From positions 1-64,000 of the forward strand of contig JAZDKB010000029.1 in NCBI GenBank assembly GCA_043803405.1: a DNA stretch of 64,000 nt, given 5' to 3'. The first letter of the stretch is position 1, and each line of letters opens with the position of its first letter. Position numbers and translations under genes: made by a program. The notes beneath the pieces are model-generated. The model saw nothing but the letters and a program-made list of their open reading frames with translations. It did not search any database and was not told where the DNA came from. Positions 1 through 27,497 of this stretch are shown piece by piece. The DNA comes from Spirochaetota bacterium (GTDB taxonomy: Bacteria > Spirochaetota > UBA4802 > JAFGDQ01).

Positions 1-68
1 AAGTATAAATATATTTATCATAATATAAAGGTTTAATTGAAATAAATGCGAGGATTCAAATATAAAAA

Positions 69-788
69 TTGAAAAGATTGTTGAGTAATTTATTTATTGA
101 TAGAAAATTTCGACTACCTCGAATCTGGTCTAATACTGAATTAAAGAAATTTGCCCATATGTTTGCAGGTGACGTTGTAAATGTAAGTGGATGGGTTGAT
201 ATTGATAAAGAAGGAAGTCATTATAAAGATTATTTTTCTAATGCTAAAAGTTATACTGTTACAAATTATAAAAGTGAATTTTGTGGATATCAGGGATTAT
301 CAAATGAAATATTTCTTAACTTAGAAGAAGAATTACCAGACGAATTAATAAATAGATTTGATGTTGTTTTTAATCATACTGTTTTAGAACACATATTCGA
401 AATTGAAAAAGCTTTTAAAAATTTATGTTTATTGAGCAAAGATGTTGTAATACTAGTAGTTCCATTTTTACAGCAAATGCATACGAATTATGGAGACTAT
501 TTTAGATTTAGCCCATTATCAATCGAAAGAATGTTTGTTAAAAATAATATGCAATTACTTTATTTAAATTTTAACTCACATAAAAATTCTTCAGTATATA
601 TTTTTGCGATTGCCACTAAGCATCCTGAAAATTGGAAGAATTCAATTCCAACCGTTATAAAAAATATTGAAAGTAAAAAACCAGACGATAATTTTGATGC
701 CTATATAGGGTGTCATGCTATTCAGAATAGATTGTTTAGTTTAATGTTGAGAATTAAAAAAATATTTAAAATGCAATTGATAAATTAA
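69..788 (+). CDS. Class I SAM-dependent methyltransferase-like protein (polysaccharide locus)
   Basis: FDVVFNHTVLEH, VVPF and DYFRF motifs of Methyltransf_11-type proteins; shares DxDKEG..YK.YF with the next ORF. Confidence 0.7.
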   Translation: MKRLLSNLFIDRKFRLPRIWSNTELKKFAHMFAGDVVNVSGWVDIDKEGSHYKDYFSNAKSYTVTNYKSEFCGYQGLSNEIFLNLEEELPDELINRFDVVFNHTVLEHIFEIEKAFKNLCLLSKDVVILVVPFLQQMHTNYGDYFRFSPLSIERMFVKNNMQLLYLNFNSHKNSSVYIFAIATKHPENWKNSIPTVIKNIESKKPDDNFDAYIGCHAIQNRLFSLMLRIKKIFKMQLIN

Positions 789-828
789 AATAAAAGAAGC
801 GTAGCGTACGTAGGGGATATAAAAATCA

Positions 829-1419
829 ATGAATAATAATATACAAGTTTGTGGAGATCATAAAGTAAGTATTTTTCGAAAATTTCAAAATGATAATTTA
901 AAAAGTATATTATCAATTTATGAAAATATAAATTCTGTTTTAAATATAGGTGCACTTCCAAATGATGGAGATAAGGAAGGTAATTATTATAAAAATTATT
1001 TTAGCAGATGTGATTATTATACCTTGGATAAAAATAAAAATCAAGATGTACCAAAGCATTATAATTTTGATTTGCATGATTTATCAAAAATTAATAAAAA
1101 ATTTGATCTGGTTTTATTAATGAGTGTTTTGGAACATTTAGAGAATCCATTTATATGTTCAAAAGAAATTTATAATATTATCTCAACTAATGGATATTTG
1201 TATATTGCTGCTCCTTTTTTTTATCCAATACATAAAGAAAAAGCATATAGCGATTACTGGAGATTTACAGATGAAGGTATTCGTACTTTGTTTAAAGATT
1301 TAACTGAAATCTGGATAAGAAAAATGGATTCAGTAATTCTTTCAGTTGAAGATCGTAATAGATATTGGGATACAGATTCAACCCCAGCAGGGTATTGTGC
1401 ACTATTTAGAAAAGAATGA
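829..1419 (+). CDS. Class I SAM-dependent methyltransferase
   Basis: VLNIGA motif I, FDLVLLMSVLEHL, APFFYPIH, DYWRFT. Confidence 0.8.
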   Translation: MNNNIQVCGDHKVSIFRKFQNDNLKSILSIYENINSVLNIGALPNDGDKEGNYYKNYFSRCDYYTLDKNKNQDVPKHYNFDLHDLSKINKKFDLVLLMSVLEHLENPFICSKEIYNIISTNGYLYIAAPFFYPIHKEKAYSDYWRFTDEGIRTLFKDLTEIWIRKMDSVILSVEDRNRYWDTDSTPAGYCALFRKE

Positions 1420-1502
1420 TCGATTACTTGAATATTGTATTCTCAGGTAATAATAACATTATAATTATATAATCAAGTCGTAAATTTTAATGATTAAATA
1501 AT

Positions 1503-3875
1503 ATGAAAAAAAATAATCTTCTATGCATATTACGTACTCAGAATGAAAGGACTGAAAATTTAAGTCGTCTATTACTTGAGAACGAAGTTGGAAAAGAAAA
1601 TGTAATCGTTATTCATGAAGCCCCTTTTGCTCAAGCCGTTATAAGGTCTTTTGAGCTAGGGATTGACTCGGGATCAGAATGGACATTCTGTTTTGATGGG
1701 GATGTTTTAGTAGTTCCAGAAGCAATAAATAAGTGCATTGAAGATTTGGATCAAGTTTTACCGAAAGTATTTAAAATTCAACCAAGATTGATAAGTAAAA
1801 TACATGGTGCAAAAATTGCAGCAGGTTTTCATATTTATAGAACAAGTCTTTTAAATGAAGCATTGAAATATATTAAACCAGATATTAATTCATTGAGACC
1901 TGAAACATTTGTATTGAGGGAAATGATAAAAAATGGTTATTCTATTTCACATCTTGATAAAATTGTTGGTATACATGAATATGAACTATATTATTCAGAC
2001 ATTTATAGAAGAATGAGACTTCGTGGAACAAAAGGAGGGAAAGAGGAACTAGAATATTTGAGGAAAAGACTTATAAAAATGCAAGATATTGATCCAGACT
2101 TTCGAGTAGCTTTAAAAGGAATAGATGATTCATTATTAAAGCCTATCCATCAACACTCTATAAATAGTATAGATAGTATCGAGATTCAGTCTGTTTTAAA
2201 TGACCTTGGATTAAAAGAAAAAAGTAGAATATCAGATTCAATAAACGGTGACTTTGTAATTGATATTGTAAAGTCCTTTAGTCCAGATTCAGATGCATTG
2301 GCTTTTACACAAAAATTTGAATCTCTTAATTTCCCCAAAAAGGGTATAAAAATATTGCTTATTAGCTCTGCTTCTGTTGGTCCTCTATATATTAGTACAT
2401 TATTAAAAAATAATAATCACGAAGTGAAAAGATTGTATCAAGGTTATGAGGATTATTTGGGTGAACCAAGCGCTCCATTCAATCCTCCTTATAGAGAGGA
2501 AGAATTATTGGAGTATTCTCCTGATGTTATTGGTTTTTCAGTTGAATCCTCCACTTTTAAAAAAGCTGAGTTAATGGCCTCGAAGATAAAAAGAATTCTG
2601 CCAAATTGCTTTATCATATTTGGTGGAGCACATGCGACTGATTGTCCTGAGGAGATAATTAAGTACGAATCTATTGATGCAATATGTATTGGGGAAGGCG
2701 AATACCCAATGTTGGAAGTTTGTAATGAGTTAAATATTGGACGTTTTCCTTTGAAAGTAAAAAATATATGGATTAAACATAATGGAGAAATAATTCGAAA
2801 TGATCTTCGTCCTTACATACAAGATTTGGATACTATACCAATGGATAGGGATAATATTTGGTATGGAGGTTTATTTACGGGTAGAGGCTGTGTTGGAAGA
2901 TGTTCTTTCTGTAATATTCCCGCGTTTAGAAAACATGGGCCAAAGGGTAAGTTTTTTCGGAAACTAACAATTGAATCAGCGATGAAGGAAGTTGAAATTG
3001 TTTACAGAGGAACAATTGAAAAAGTTCTTTCTGTTAAACAAACACCATTACTTTATAAAGTTTTGTCAAAAATATTTAGCTCTTCAATTTTAAGTAAATT
3101 CTACAATACTTCGATTTGGGTTCTTCCACAAGGAACATATAGGAGAGAAAAAGAATATGAATCGGTGATAGATAAGATAAAAGGAAGAACGAAATGGATA
3201 GATCCAGTAAGATTTAAAGATGATACATTTTTAGCAGATAAAAAATGGTTTTTAGAGTTTGCAAAAAGGTTAAACGATAAATTTCCTAATATGAAGTATA
3301 TTTGTCAGGCAAGAGCAAATGAAATTGATGAAGAGGTTGCTCTTTGGTTATCAAGAAGTGGTTGCGTTCGAGTTTCATTAGGATTTGAAACAGGTAATGA
3401 AAAGTTAAGGAATGAGGTAATTAAAAAAAATATTAAAGACAGTCAAATATACTTTGCCTGTGAATTGCTTCGTAAAAATAATATAGAGATAATGGGGCAA
3501 TGGATGTATGGTTTGCCAGATGAAAGATTAGAAGATACAATTAAAACATTAATTATGTCTACTGAAATAGGAGATATTTCTCAGTTACATTTTACAAGTC
3601 CGTTACCGAATACTGAATTATATAATTTAGCAGCCCAAAAAGGTCTAATAGACTATAAACATGAAAATAAAGGATTGTATAGTTATGATTTAATATTTCA
3701 TAATGAAATTGAAAGACTACATATATTATTGATTTCTCTTTTGCATGTATTGAAGGACGTTAGAATTCCAGTTGATTATAAATACATACGATACTTGGGC
3801 TCTGATAATAATTGGCGTGGAAAAACGATTGGTGAGGTATTTTCAATTGAACTTAAGTCGAAGATAAAATATTAA
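1503..3875 (+). CDS. Fusion: GT-A-like N-terminal domain + cobalamin-binding radical SAM enzyme
   Basis: N-terminal CFDGDV (DxD-like); B12-binding region PDVIGFS...IIFGGAHAT...IGEGE; CxxxCxxC in GRGCVGRCSFC; GFETG, YGLPDE. Confidence 0.8.
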   Translation: MKKNNLLCILRTQNERTENLSRLLLENEVGKENVIVIHEAPFAQAVIRSFELGIDSGSEWTFCFDGDVLVVPEAINKCIEDLDQVLPKVFKIQPRLISKIHGAKIAAGFHIYRTSLLNEALKYIKPDINSLRPETFVLREMIKNGYSISHLDKIVGIHEYELYYSDIYRRMRLRGTKGGKEELEYLRKRLIKMQDIDPDFRVALKGIDDSLLKPIHQHSINSIDSIEIQSVLNDLGLKEKSRISDSINGDFVIDIVKSFSPDSDALAFTQKFESLNFPKKGIKILLISSASVGPLYISTLLKNNNHEVKRLYQGYEDYLGEPSAPFNPPYREEELLEYSPDVIGFSVESSTFKKAELMASKIKRILPNCFIIFGGAHATDCPEEIIKYESIDAICIGEGEYPMLEVCNELNIGRFPLKVKNIWIKHNGEIIRNDLRPYIQDLDTIPMDRDNIWYGGLFTGRGCVGRCSFCNIPAFRKHGPKGKFFRKLTIESAMKEVEIVYRGTIEKVLSVKQTPLLYKVLSKIFSSSILSKFYNTSIWVLPQGTYRREKEYESVIDKIKGRTKWIDPVRFKDDTFLADKKWFLEFAKRLNDKFPNMKYICQARANEIDEEVALWLSRSGCVRVSLGFETGNEKLRNEVIKKNIKDSQIYFACELLRKNNIEIMGQWMYGLPDERLEDTIKTLIMSTEIGDISQLHFTSPLPNTELYNLAAQKGLIDYKHENKGLYSYDLIFHNEIERLHILLISLLHVLKDVRIPVDYKYIRYLGSDNNWRGKTIGEVFSIELKSKIKY

Positions 3876-20134: not shown

Positions 20135-22363
20135 ATGAAGGGTTTCAATCCATTAGTTTCAATTGTAATGCCTGTATATAACGGTTCGGATTATATGCGG
20201 GAAGCAATTGACAGTGCAATAAATCAGACTTACAAAAATATTGAGATAATTGTTGTTAATGACGGCTCCAAAGATAACACAGAAGAAATAGCTTTAAGTT
20301 ACGGGAATAAGATAAGATATATAAAAAAAGAGAATGGCGGCACTTCAACAGCATTGAATGTTGGCATTAAAAATATGAAGGGGGATTACTTTTCATGGCT
20401 CAGTCATGATGACATGTATACCCCCGATAAAATCAAAAGACAGGTTGATGAACTGTCAAAATTGAATAATAAAAATACGGTAATAAGAGCCTCACTAAGT
20501 GTTATAAATGAAAAATATGAAACAATTTATTGTACTAACTTTATTGAACATCAACAGGCATACCCATCCAGAGGAAGATCAAAATATTATCCGGTAATTT
20601 TTAGTCAGGTGCAAGGTTGTGAATTACTGATCCCTAAAGTCGCTTTTCATGTTGTAGGTTTATTTGACGAGAAAGTGTTAGTCGCACAGGATTATGAATT
20701 TTTTTACAGACTTTTTCTTGAATTTCCCCAACAATTGATACCGGAAAGACTTGTCATTGCGAGACAAAGAAGTCAGGGGCAAGGACAGATTAAAGCTCAA
20801 TTGAGGATTGAAGAATATAGTAAATTGTTTATTTCTATATTGGAGCGATTAACGGTGGAAGATATCAAGTTATTAGCTCCATCCAAGTTGGAATTTTATC
20901 GAGAATTAGCAGAAATTTTATCAAACTCAGGCCATAATATTGCTGTTGATTATATACATAATAAAACATTATTAAATCTTCAGATTTGTTTTAAAGATTT
21001 GGTCGGCAATAAATTTAATGGCTATGATATGCACCATTACCTGAGAGCAAAAGATATTGATTCAAAAATGCTGGTCCAAAATAAGTTTTCAAATGATGAC
21101 ACCGTGCTTGAGTATAACTTTGATGATCACAACTCAACTCGTAATTTATTAAGAAATAAATTATTTTTAAATTCAGTTATTGTTCATTTGCATTTGATTC
21201 ATAGCATCATTCATAATAACTCTTTTGATTTAAATTATTTACCAATCATTACAAAACTAAAACCTGTAATTATTACATTGCATGATTCATATTTTTTAGG
21301 CGCACACTGTATACATCATTTTGATTGCACCAAATGGCAGTCCCATTGTTTTGATTGCCAATACTTAGATAAGTCTTTCGTAATCAATGACGATGATACA
21401 GCTTTAAGATTTGAATTGCTAAAACAGATAATTCAAAATTCTGCTATTACTGCACTTGTAGCTTCAAAATGGATGGAGGATAAAGTAAAATTATCTCCAG
21501 TCTGGAAAGGGAAAAGGATTTATAAAGTTCCATTCGGGATAGATCAGATGCTGTTTAAGCCTGAAAAGATATCTGTTGCGAAGAAAAGGCTCGGAATTCA
21601 TCCTGATTCTGTTACTTTTATGTTTAGGGCTATCCCAGATATGTACGAGGGGCTAGATATAATTATCAATGCGTTTCAAAAGTTAAAAACGAATACTAAG
21701 TGCACAATTATTACAGTTGAGGGAACCGGCTTTCTGAATGGGCTTAAAGATAAATATAACATTATTGAATCCGGTTGTTTAAATAATGATAATAAGCTTG
21801 TTGAATTGTATCAGGCTTGCGATTTGTTTTTAATGCCCTCTAAACAGGAAACATTCGGAATGATGGCAATTGAGGCAATGAGTTGCGGTAAAATGATTTT
21901 ATCTCTGGCAACCACGGGAAGTGCCTTACCTGAAGTAATAAATGCTCCTGATTGCGGGATAGCAGTTGATGAGAGTGAATACTCATCGGAACTGCAGCGC
22001 CTGATAGATAATCCAGAAGAAATCGAAGAACGCGGCAGAAAGTCGCTCGAGTTTGCAAAAAAAAATTACGACAAAGATATATATTTAGATCGAATAATAG
22101 AAATATATAAAGAGGTGATTGCTAATCATAAAATCGATGAAAGCGTTAAATTGATAATACAACAGTTGCTAAAGCATTCAAACAGAGGCGCTTTCCCGAA
22201 AGATTCACGCTTTGCTGCATTATTTCATAAACTAATTAGGTATCGTCTTTTTAAGTACATCTGGCCTAAAATACGACCGCTGGTACTGGTCTATTATGTT
22301 TTTATTAACAAGTTACGTAATAGTCTCAAAACCTGTTCTCGGAGAGATTCATCATTATTTTAG
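20135..22363 (+). CDS. Bifunctional GT2 + GT4 glycosyltransferase
   Basis: N-terminal GT2 paralogous to 12903; C-terminal TLHD, HC..C..W..C..C, ETFGMMAIEAM. Confidence 0.9.
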   Translation: MKGFNPLVSIVMPVYNGSDYMREAIDSAINQTYKNIEIIVVNDGSKDNTEEIALSYGNKIRYIKKENGGTSTALNVGIKNMKGDYFSWLSHDDMYTPDKIKRQVDELSKLNNKNTVIRASLSVINEKYETIYCTNFIEHQQAYPSRGRSKYYPVIFSQVQGCELLIPKVAFHVVGLFDEKVLVAQDYEFFYRLFLEFPQQLIPERLVIARQRSQGQGQIKAQLRIEEYSKLFISILERLTVEDIKLLAPSKLEFYRELAEILSNSGHNIAVDYIHNKTLLNLQICFKDLVGNKFNGYDMHHYLRAKDIDSKMLVQNKFSNDDTVLEYNFDDHNSTRNLLRNKLFLNSVIVHLHLIHSIIHNNSFDLNYLPIITKLKPVIITLHDSYFLGAHCIHHFDCTKWQSHCFDCQYLDKSFVINDDDTALRFELLKQIIQNSAITALVASKWMEDKVKLSPVWKGKRIYKVPFGIDQMLFKPEKISVAKKRLGIHPDSVTFMFRAIPDMYEGLDIIINAFQKLKTNTKCTIITVEGTGFLNGLKDKYNIIESGCLNNDNKLVELYQACDLFLMPSKQETFGMMAIEAMSCGKMILSLATTGSALPEVINAPDCGIAVDESEYSSELQRLIDNPEEIEERGRKSLEFAKKNYDKDIYLDRIIEIYKEVIANHKIDESVKLIIQQLLKHSNRGAFPKDSRFAALFHKLIRYRLFKYIWPKIRPLVLVYYVFINKLRNSLKTCSRRDSSLF

Positions 22364-24518: not shown

Positions 24519-25639
24519 AAGTGATGACTGTTGTGGGAACAAGACCTGAAATAATCAGGCTTTCCCGTGTAATTGCCAAACTGGATAAATATACGAATCA
24601 TATTCTTGTTCACAGTGGGCAGAACTATGATTATGAATTAAATAAAATTTTTTTTGATGATCTGGATATTAGAAAACCGGATTATTTTTTGGATGCAGCT
24701 GCTTCATCTCTTGCTCAAACAATAGGGAACATAATTATTAAAATAGATGAAGTTTTTGAAAAGGAAAAACCTGACGTATTTCTTGTTCTTGGTGATACTA
24801 ATAGCTGCCTGTCTGTGATATCTGCTAAAAGAAGGAAAATCCCGATCTTCCATATGGAAGCCGGTAATAGATGCTTTGACCAGAGAGTTCCTGAAGAAAC
24901 TAACAGAAAAATTGTCGATAGTATATCTGACATTAATATGCCCTATAGCTCAATTGCCCGTGAATATTTAATATCAGAAGGTTTTCCTCCAGAACGGATC
25001 ATTAAAACAGGAAGTCCTATGTTTGAAGTGATTGAATTTTATCGCGATAAGATTGAGAAATGTGATATAGTCGAAAGACTTGGACTTGAAAAACATAAGT
25101 ATTTTGTAGTAAGTTCCCATAGAGAAGAAAATGTTGATGATAATTTAAGAATTCAAAAAATTGCTGAAATTTTGAATTCAATCTGCAAAAATTATAAGTT
25201 TCCGGTAATTTTTTCAACACACCCTAGAACGAGAAAAAGGATCGATAACTATTCAATCAAATTCCATAAACTCATCAGATCAATAAAACCTCTTGGTTTT
25301 ATTGATTATATAAAGCTTCAACAGAATGCTTATTGTGTAATTTCGGATAGTGGAACAATTACCGAAGAATCCTCCATAATGAATTTTCCGGCTTTAAATT
25401 TAAGAGAATCACATGAAAGGCCAGAAGGTATGGAAGAGGGAGCTGTAATTATGACAGGGCTTAGTAAAACAAGAGTTTTAGAATCCATACCTTTAGCTAT
25501 ATGTCAACCGCGTGGTTTAGAACGATCATTTAAAATGGTTGGTGATTACAATGTTTCCAATGTATCTGAGAAAGTATTAAGAATAATAACAAGTTATACA
25601 GATTATGTGAAGCGTAGGGTATGGAATATAAATGATTAA
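24515..25639 (+). CDS. fnlC: UDP-N-acetylhexosamine 2-epimerase, non-hydrolysing (FnlC/WbjD type)
   Basis: VGTRPEIIRLS, HMEAGNRCFD, SDSGTITEE, HERPEGM. Confidence 0.9.
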   Translation: MKVMTVVGTRPEIIRLSRVIAKLDKYTNHILVHSGQNYDYELNKIFFDDLDIRKPDYFLDAAASSLAQTIGNIIIKIDEVFEKEKPDVFLVLGDTNSCLSVISAKRRKIPIFHMEAGNRCFDQRVPEETNRKIVDSISDINMPYSSIAREYLISEGFPPERIIKTGSPMFEVIEFYRDKIEKCDIVERLGLEKHKYFVVSSHREENVDDNLRIQKIAEILNSICKNYKFPVIFSTHPRTRKRIDNYSIKFHKLIRSIKPLGFIDYIKLQQNAYCVISDSGTITEESSIMNFPALNLRESHERPEGMEEGAVIMTGLSKTRVLESIPLAICQPRGLERSFKMVGDYNVSNVSEKVLRIITSYTDYVKRRVWNIND

Positions 25640-25683
25640 TGATCCTGTCAATCCACTCGTGTCTATTGTAATCCCTGTTTATA
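25632..25683 (+). pseudogene. N-terminal remnant of a GT2 glycosyltransferase
   Basis: MINDPVNPLVSIVIPVY matches the N-termini of ORFs 12903 and 20135, then breaks into unrelated sequence; overlaps the fnlC stop. Confidence 0.8.
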
Positions 25684-25930: not shown

Positions 25931-26034
25931 CCTGGACTTAATTTATAGACAGTACTCTGAATTTATTAATGAAAGTATAGAAAAGCACCTAAGAATCACA
26001 AACCTTTACATTTTCGGCAAAAACTGGGCTTGAG

Positions 26035-27000
26035 TTGGTATTTAATAAAGAGCCCGCGTCTGTGCAGGCTTATGAAAGGTTACTGAAGACAGTATTATCT
26101 TTAAAAATACTTTTTTTAGAGGTTTTCAAAATCAATTCTAAAACGAGATACATTGTTTTTTGTGTTGCATTAGCATGTGCACTTCTACTGGTGGATTTCG
26201 GTTGTACACACGATGGAGTCACGACAACAGCGGTCGTATTCCAGGATGCCGTTCAAACCGGCGGGACATCGGGCATAGCCGACTCAACAGCTCTGATTCT
26301 TACCTTTGATGTTGACCCGACTACATTGGCAGTCAGCGACATCATGGTAACCGGAGCAACTAAGGGTTCTTTAAGTGGGACGGGTACAACAAGAACACTT
26401 GCTATATTTAACATAACGGTAGCCAACGGTGCAACTGTGTCTATTGCTATATCAAAGAGTGGTTTTACGATCACAGGTTCGCCTCAGACAGCGGTGGTGT
26501 ATCGAGCACTAACTATCGGTATGGCTTATCAGGGTGGAATTATTGCCTATATCTTGCAATACGGTGATCCGGGTTATTTATCAGGTCAAACTCACGGACT
26601 TATAGCATCAACGACTGATTTAAGTACCGGAATTCAATGGTATAATAATAATTATATAGCCATAGGAGTAACAAGGACAGAACTGGGCACTGGTCAATCA
26701 AATACTACAGCAATTGTAAATAGGCAGGGAGCGGGAAGCTATGCAGCACAACTTTGTGATGATTATACAAATGAAGACAACGGAACAGGCATTTACTCTG
26801 ACTGGTATTTGCCGTCAAAAGATGAGCTGAACAAACTCTATCTAAATAAAACGGCTGTTGGTGGATTTGTCAATGGTTACCATTGGTCGTCGTCCGAGTA
26901 CGATTATATCAAGGTGTGGCTCCAGGGCTTCGCCGATGGTTACCAGGACCCCTACGCTAAGTACTATCTCCTTAAGGTTCGGGCTGTCCGGACTTTTTAA
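26035..27000 (+). CDS. DUF1566/Lcl-type (C-type lectin fold) putative lipoprotein with a Thr-rich Ig-like domain; candidate DGR target
   Basis: IG..YQGGIIAY, GTGQSNT.AI, DWYLPSKDEL, WSSSE...W...F..G.Q....K.....VRAVR.F; hydrophobic stretch ending LVDFG-C. Confidence 0.8.
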   Translation: MVFNKEPASVQAYERLLKTVLSLKILFLEVFKINSKTRYIVFCVALACALLLVDFGCTHDGVTTTAVVFQDAVQTGGTSGIADSTALILTFDVDPTTLAVSDIMVTGATKGSLSGTGTTRTLAIFNITVANGATVSIAISKSGFTITGSPQTAVVYRALTIGMAYQGGIIAYILQYGDPGYLSGQTHGLIASTTDLSTGIQWYNNNYIAIGVTRTELGTGQSNTTAIVNRQGAGSYAAQLCDDYTNEDNGTGIYSDWYLPSKDELNKLYLNKTAVGGFVNGYHWSSSEYDYIKVWLQGFADGYQDPYAKYYLLKVRAVRTF

Positions 27001-27326
27001 CTATTTAATCTTTTAACAATTAGGGATTATAAGAAACTTACTCTCTTAGTTGTAAATGGTAATATATTTAGATATTAAATAGCACATTCCTGATCAGTAT
27101 AGAGCTCATAAAAAAATTTATAATATTTAAAAAGGAGGACGGCATCTTTTTTTAATTCCTTTTTTACATGCCGATTATTTTGATAAAAATTTTGCTGTAA
27201 TAGAGAAAATAAGCAATACAAAGTTTCTTACAATACCAATTTACCATAGAGACCCTATTGGAACAGAAAGAGCACTTTTTTTAATATTTTTTCTCTTAGA
27301 ATGTTAATAAAATTGAAAGAAATCAG

Positions 27327-27497
27327 ATTCACTATAAAAGCTCAACCACTGGACATTTCAGTGACCGGGAAACAAGGGATGCGGAAGCAATACATTTCAG
27401 GAAGAAGTGGATGCATGTAATTAACAAAGGTGATCTATATTATAATCCAAACCTTGCAGATGACTTTACAGTAAAGACTAATACATTCAGTGATTAA
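27327..27497 (+). pseudogene. C-terminal remnant of a GT2 glycosyltransferase
   Basis: Translates to IHYKSSTTGHFSDRETRDAEAIHFRKKWMHVINKGDLYYNPNLADDFTVKTNTFSD*, resembling the H.ES..G...KW...DPYYNPNL tail of O-antigen GT2s. Confidence 0.7.

Follow-up and report, generated by a model that had tools for sequence, protein, structure and literature searches.

The window, by which we mean the whole 64,000-nucleotide stretch analysed here (positions 1 to 64,000 of contig JAZDKB010000029.1, assembly GCA_043803405.1, from a Spirochaetota bacterium), carries a gene for a putative surface lectin whose 3' end is a DGR variable region (VR) that is likely a frozen relic, with a recent freeze as the most probable course. 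In a DGR, RT and Avd reverse-transcribe the RNA of a template (TR), making errors at adenines, and the resulting cDNA replaces the VR, giving rise to varied lectin binding loops. We consider the VR likely to be frozen because the TR, Avd and RT that wrote it are absent from the assembled genome. An unlikely but serious alternative is that the VR is still being rewritten in trans by an intact DGR, which would probably lie as a cassette in an unassembled part of the integron array of this genome and would rely on the IMH and the 8-bp repeats that follow the VR without a hairpin.

Codon pattern and template alignment

The VR lies at 26866..26997 of the forward strand, including its 3' constant, IMH-like codons. 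Its 44 codons end in C (16), G (13) or T (15) and never in A, compared to 76 A-ending codons out of 240 upstream in the same frame (P=5.3e-8), which bears out the observation in the initial annotation that such codons are frequent upstream and missing from the end of the gene. The run free of third-position adenines is exactly 44 codons long, with an A-ending GGA directly before 26866. Among the genome's 2023 ORFs that are 250 aa or longer, the gene is unique in having no A-ending codon in its last 44, and three others have one, including a paralogue at C18:36680-37561.

TRs from related complete DGRs align with the VR codon for codon, among them that of a complete DGR in G055, a genome of the same order. 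Relative to the best of these, 28 of 48 template adenines are changed as opposed to 10 of 78 other bases (p 9.5e-8), and an adenine-biased mismatch is seen with 10/10 heterologous TRs of the family (p 1e-7 to 0.003), this set being the 10 TRs that can be aligned in a fixed register, with G055, a metagenome scan (9 loci) and an RT scan (25 loci) as its sources. Eighteen sense codons (19 if the stop codon is counted) stand opposite AAC or AAT in the nearest TR, of which 17 are NNC or NNT; position 1 or 2 is changed in 16/18 and the third base of the template is retained in 16/18, as anticipated if these codons descend from AAC/AAT templates. The end of the VR differs at two positions from the family VR-end pattern, so that an IMH-type 3' end and cis repeats are both present. 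As judged from these sequences, the last 44 codons are a genuine DGR VR, shaped as proposed by adenine mutagenesis of AAC/AAT template codons.

It is very improbable that the gene has no DGR history and owes its codon pattern to amino-acid composition or to a GC-richer donor segment. The gene does have a GC content of 0.44 compared to 0.32 in its flanks, and is therefore foreign, but the codon-wise match to real TRs with their third bases kept refutes this explanation, and the bias against every one of the alignable TRs and the DGR-specific flanks on both sides speak against it as well.

The lectin domain and its signal peptide

The target gene (26131..27000, forward strand) encodes 289 aa from an ATC codon, with a signal peptide containing a Cys, an Ig-like domain and a C-terminal C-type-lectin (Lcl_C) domain. 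A GAGG motif starts 12 nt before the ATC at 26131, and longer gene calls from TTG 26035 traverse a non-coding 5' element. Its two closest full-length homologues with available DNA are the core targets of two intact DGR loci, L071 and L072, with 68-69% identity. An HMM search recovers the predicted DUF1566 domain, known by that name in other sources and as Lcl_C in Pfam (PF07603), at residues 193-319 with an E-value of 6.9e-9, above the cut-off. In a structure model of the protein (pLDDT 90), a wide structural search matches the C-terminal domain to the Lcl C-terminal domain 8q4e (Z 15.7, rmsd 3.2, 128 aligned residues), with further matches to Bd2740 (Z 10.2) and the lectin 1egg (Z 8.0, rmsd 2.8, 100 aligned) and lower scores for the known DGR targets TvpA (Z 6.9) and Mtd (Z 6.5). 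The N-terminal domain is modelled as Ig-like and resembles an SbsC S-layer domain (Z 10.4, rmsd 2.7, 84 aligned). The VR is thus placed by the model on a C-type lectin fold, and together with the adenine-biased TR mismatch and the cis elements of the family this agrees with the earlier proposal of a DGR VR on a surface protein of that fold.

The proposed lipoprotein nature of the protein holds in part. A hydrophobic signal stretch followed by a Cys is present, but an ATC stands where homologues have their Met and an atypical Asp occupies position -3, which is found in 0 of the other 58 rows having the same Cys. These changes to the start codon and lipobox count for a frozen relic and against a target that is still being rewritten. 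The mature protein differs at 6/94 conserved sites (median 5), with a dN of 0.13-0.15 and a dS of 1.6-2.3, which rules out general pseudogene decay and counts against the relic reading. From these comparisons the mature protein looks normal and was under purifying selection. A promoter scan performed at chance level (5 found, 6.9 expected).

Flanks of the gene and its setting in a polysaccharide locus

The genes around the target encode a sugar epimerase/dehydratase, a methyltransferase, an MBOAT protein and glycosyltransferase-like ORFs, in keeping with the surface-glycan locus recognised in the initial annotation. Upstream of the target, at 25632..25682 on the forward strand, is a stub of a glycosyltransferase family-2 N-terminus, likely the remnant of an interrupted gene, in which 10/11 residues equal the start of the glycosyltransferase at 20135, a weak match (E 0.02-0.05 within the 2-kb region). 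Downstream, at 27330..27473 on the same strand, lies a remnant of a glycosyltransferase-like C-terminus that shares 39% identity over 54 aa with the C-terminus of a long glycosyltransferase-like ORF in G089 (E 6e-7 within the region; no Pfam match for the remnant alone). The presence of such remnants on both sides suggests insertion with deletion, and the position of the gene in the glycan locus looks like an insertion between glycosyltransferase remnants.

Between these remnants, collinearity of the window with L071 and L072 begins at 26010, takes in the gene, the VR and the 8-bp repeats, and ends at approximately 27080. The non-coding 5' end of the DGR cassette occupies 26010..26076 (forward strand), has ATT where intact cassettes have an attC-type GTT core and is the best match in the genome to a profile of three cassette 5' ends (E 7.2e-6). 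On the other side of the VR, the AT-rich run of 8-bp period that had been noted across the stop codon starts at 26996 and extends to 27021 (forward strand); it proves to be a cis element common to VR ends, and not TR ends, of this DGR family, with 86-90% identity over 29-37 nt to post-VR DNA of eight cassette loci, and this fit to the family favours a target that is still live. It is followed by a decayed GC-rich hairpin (27022..27050, forward strand), which agrees with the hairpin of G055 at 26/29 positions when bases are scored as purine or pyrimidine, the best of 2598 ORF ends, and whose decay counts for a frozen relic; its 70-nt fold has -1.5 kcal/mol, compared to -5.4 to -12.1 in nine cassette VRs. 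A possible but weak stump of an avd start (27056..27082, forward strand) consists of eight avd-like codons, the first of them an ATG, and a stop. Its ATG lies 55 nt past the target stop, a distance that is 57-67 nt in 8/9 cassettes, and it ranks 6-28 of 2592 with a 24-nt matrix and 42-156 with 27 nt.

Beyond the 8-bp repeats, local alignment was no better than with shuffled sequences (65-197/500 reached the score), nhmmer with three profiles found no avd remnant, and a search of 27061-27330 for the cassette 3' end gave nothing above shuffles (124-449/500) and no profile match. Upstream of 26010 the sequence does not fold as an attC remnant and no attC arm was found; for the window as a whole, the search returned neither an attC arm nor a cassette 3' end, with a matrix that misses this genome's own attC type too. 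Together with the weakness of the avd stump, the lack of these two ends in the window counts against a relic. Rfam gave no matches on the window locus, L071 or L072, and a DNA query for the homologous locus in two genomes of the same genus found none. Overall, collinearity with intact cassettes from their 5' end to about the start of avd gives the gene the look of a core target of former times.

Search for a template, Avd and RT

The genome comprises 3.98 Mb in 54 contigs and is 94.38% complete. The initial annotation had proposed that a DGR elsewhere in this genome diversifies the gene in trans and had suggested, as a check, a blastn search for a template repeat near an RT/avd pair. The proposal of such a DGR acting at present is not supported by the assembly: a cognate TR was found by none of blastn, an adenine-tolerant ungapped scan or a profile of 10 TRs, which returned only VR-type gene ends, and no match near the cut-off was obtained for Avd, the accessory type searched for, as distinct from others such as HRDC. 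No DGR RT was found, a family RT profile of 20 sequences giving no other match below an E-value of 0.5 than the sole RT of the assembly, that of a group II intron at C9:277583-279034. Although this RT is present, it is hardly conceivable that it or another unrecognised RT drives the variation, given its RVT_N and GIIM domains and the Rfam intron RNA domains (D1-D4, D5/6) around it, an identity to the family RT of 28% over a short stretch only, and the absence of Avd and TR nearby and of any TR in the genome.

These results argue against an intact DGR acting from elsewhere, as not even a fragment of a TR, spacer, Avd or RT was seen. The contig crosses the VR without a break, and two contigs obtained from other runs agree with it there (0 differences over 26896-27046 and 26940-27209, at a depth of 2-3, with 26866-26895 uncovered). 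Of the four runs compared, these two belong to one study, possibly the assembly's own source, while run X3 gave upstream DNA only and run X4 gave no contig. Also against it, a scaffold-pattern scan of viral, metagenome and genome collections, from which near kin may be absent, matched only the window, and a scan of 121 other genomes of the order gave no match. A protein search in viral contigs confirmed 0/4 candidates. In favour of a live target, and against a relic, are the incompleteness of the assembly and the break in the integron array at a place where a DGR cassette could have been lost; several related DGR cores are indeed found at contig ends.

Paralogues and VRs without a core across the phylum

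Four paralogues in this genome, three in tandem at C18:36680-40006 and a fourth at C44:2352-2957, carry ends resembling a VR in which 1, 4, 4 and 12 of the 44 codons end in A, a graded decay that counts for the relic reading. The freshest of these (C18:36680-37561) lacks the family repeats past its stop and fits a different TR type, that of L100, with 26/50 adenines and 11/76 other bases changed. Were the VR in the window still served by an intact DGR, two cores would thus have to be missing from the assembly.

The VR end described here occurs in 14 of the 401 phylum genomes searched. Among the 13 others, four have an RT 46-85% identical to that of the family, one has a distant split RT and the rest have none or a weak match. 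With a close RT in only 4/13, coreless VRs are therefore the usual state, and this too weighs against an active core acting on our gene. L127 and L131 fall outside the parsing of loci in these genomes, and fixed-register scores are invalid for VRs with indels. Three loci, L116 (G229), L117 (G162) and L129 (G015), retain the target and an intact or broken avd with no TR or RT, a pattern of recurrent loss in which the cassette's 3' half has gone.

A genome of the same phylum, G235, informs how far the condition of the flanks can be used to judge activity. Its core VR differs from the TR at 17/40 adenines and 0/72 other bases and is not followed by a GC-rich hairpin, while the three remote VRs of this genome depart from the resident TR at 2, 3 and 8 non-A sites. 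This pattern shows that neither hairpin loss nor four non-A changes proves inactivity, and a hairpin-less, adenine-only core VR accompanied by remote VRs supports the possibility that our gene is a live remote target. Across the G235 loci L132, L120, L130 and L133, two remote VRs have in-frame insertions relative to the TR. Separately, the close homologues P0020 and P0027 are probably two targets in one genome.

Timing of the VR relative to its flanks

Sites that were G or C in both L071 and L072 are changed in the window at 11/17 positions of the hairpin and 24/57 of the pooled flanks, whereas in the VR, taking the three nearest TRs as reference, 2/26 G/C third positions differ (p 1e-4 and 0.002 for hairpin and pooled flanks). 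Tested alone against the VR, the 5' element gave p 0.05 and the avd stump p 0.14. With flanks so much more decayed than the VR, it follows that the flanks had already been decaying for a good while when a template was used to overwrite the VR. The better preservation of its third positions is among the points favouring a target that is still live, and the very fresh state of the VR, with no A-ending codon and changes at 3/36 shared third positions, counts against a frozen relic.

Eight cognate TR/VR pairs have 0-2 non-A mismatches each, and of the bases invariant among TRs 4/46 are altered in our VR compared to 1/368 in the eight cognate VRs and 9/470 among TRs (p 0.0006 and 0.02); one of these changes produces a His where 58/60 rows have Tyr. 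Such changes at TR-invariant sites suggest, without proving it, a recent freeze.

Two courses of events could account for the timing: the VR may have been rewritten in trans after loss of the core, or the hairpin may have been dispensable and decayed in cis, and G235 makes both possible. The case for a step in trans is weakened because a hairpin that is dispensable, as in G235, could decay in cis. If the VR is indeed frozen, the sequence comparisons slightly favour an earlier phase of rewriting in trans. In the course of events that we envisage, the front part of a cassette type that is bounded by attC-like sites in its closest relative would have landed between glycosyltransferase remnants and lost avd, TR and RT, another copy would probably still have rewritten the VR in trans for a time, and the VR would then have frozen recently, leaving a surface lectin of fixed specificity that is maybe poorly expressed.

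Intact relatives at attC-like sites

In L071 and L072, the core target is followed by avd, TR and RT (Pfam assignments for L071). Integron gene cassettes are attC-bounded units, and the L071 DGR has this form: it spans 525-3561 (3037 bp) between two attC-like sites, with a GTT core at its start and the complementary sequence at its end. The L072 DGR (66-3098) shares these ends and is followed by an attC-like site. A matrix trained on eight attC sites from related loci, none of them flanking a DGR, detects both L071 sites (scores 32.8 and 23.8; stems 9/10 and 10/10) and a site on one side at L072, L073 and L094. It misses two sites identified by eye at L080, the locus of the G055 DGR, and found none flanking a DGR in the other 23/28 loci; its background in this genome is 26 matches, none with the full 10-base stem. 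On free folding, AAC/GTT cores are paired in 5/11 other candidate attC sites, and approximately 9 kb upstream of the G055 DGR is a broken integrase-like piece on the same strand, below the cut-off. On the basis of these ends, we predict that the intact relatives travel as integron gene cassettes.

Complete DGRs of approximately 3.0 kb at attC-like sites, with complementary ends, were also seen at L073 (from 2524 onward), L080 (4442-7264) and L094. L094, where the site lies upstream, comes from Bacteroidota, and the arrangement may thus extend beyond a single phylum. At L080:5755-7194 in G055, TR and RT share a reading frame, so that the translated template forms the start of a 479-aa ORF, which is probably incidental.

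The genome under study has an IntI of its own (453 bits) and a cassette array at C9:269625-282264 and C10:1-4200. The end of C9 and the start of C10 share a 141-bp sequence inside an attC-like site, from which it follows that part of the array is unassembled. This integron is a possible entry route for the cassette, and a live core could also have been lost from the assembly here. Two further features of the array were noted: in the C9 portion a group II intron has inserted at an attC-like site that follows a cassette, and the C10 piece is headed by a transposase that we take to be IS110-like.

Relation to known systems and implications

The target belongs with the CLec2 or category 'd' DGR targets that overlap DUF1566, such as Legionella LdtA (Wu et al. 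2018, PMC5758913), an assignment that rests on the DUF1566 overlap. Like LdtA, it has a C-terminal VR in a DUF1566/Lcl_C lectin domain, a candidate lipoprotein-type signal and adenine-biased differences, whereas unlike LdtA it has no TR, RT or Avd in its assembly and differs from the nearest known TR at approximately 13% of non-A positions; Wu et al. call a remote target only where the differences are A-to-N, with minor exceptions (PMC5758913).

A frozen VR is in itself ordinary, since such VRs are frequent in this phylum and have been published for Treponema denticola and Nanoarchaeota. Strains of T. denticola that lack the core DGR keep target genes, which Nimkulrat et al. (2016, PMC4891356) interpret as what remained once the DGR had been lost. 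Our gene resembles these leftovers in being a spirochaete target most similar to core targets, with a VR that differs mostly at adenines from TRs found elsewhere and with no RT or TR in the genome. It differs in its lectin family (a Z of 6.9 for TvpA) and in the accessory protein, Avd here and HRDC as named there (PMC4891356), and in that the decay of its flanks can be timed against the VR. Not all remote T. denticola targets have hairpins (PMC6602519). In Nanoarchaeota, partial DGRs or 'fossils' comprise a target, VR and cis elements without an RT (Paul et al. 2015, PMC4372165), and the same two readings, fossil or remote target, are offered there. However, complete DGRs are described in the same genome in that case (PMC4372165) and none was found in ours. 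An IMH followed by a short inverted repeat is also the arrangement of Bordetella phage BPP-1, whose hairpin is needed for retrohoming to be efficient (Guo et al. 2011, PMC3240598), whereas the one in the window is decayed and the adenine-only VR of G235 has none.

What is of interest beyond the frozen VR is the integron-cassette lead and the timing puzzle. The L071 DGR is like an integron cassette in its two attC-like sites and complementary ends. It is unlike a typical one in being a three-gene unit with a non-coding template as opposed to a single ORF, and the copy in the window is unlike a cassette in consisting of the 5' end only, outside any array. The definition of the integron cassette is also given in PMC5737381. 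DiGReF names phages, transposons and plasmids as DGR vehicles and gives integron co-option one speculative sentence (PMC3521204). We found no report of DGRs as integron cassettes, including in the available text of PMC4891356, PMC3521204, PMC5737381 and bioRxiv 2024.11.15.621889; subscription journals and supplements may hold one. If these elements are true integron cassettes, integrons would be a further DGR vehicle and gene shuffling would be coupled with targeted hypermutation. If the VR could be rewritten after its hairpin had decayed, it may be through the IMH and the 8-bp repeats that targets are recognised in this family, and such hairpin-free recognition, if true, would be relevant to DGR-based mutagenesis tools. 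A broader proposition, which we put forward tentatively and consider rather unlikely, is that whole DGRs of this family, carried on integrons as 3-kb attC cassettes, re-diversify stranded chromosomal copies of their targets in trans without the canonical hairpin, a hit-and-run hypermutation, in which case the gene in the window would have been rewritten long after loss of its core and possibly would be still.

As a minor observation on this genome, a dispersed palindromic repeat of approximately 80 or 170 bp with G/C-run ends is present in at least seven copies, for example at C3:8100, C3:27391, C4:91782, C18:29071, C19:193064, C33:5144 and C44:33939, and is a candidate REP- or MITE-like element.
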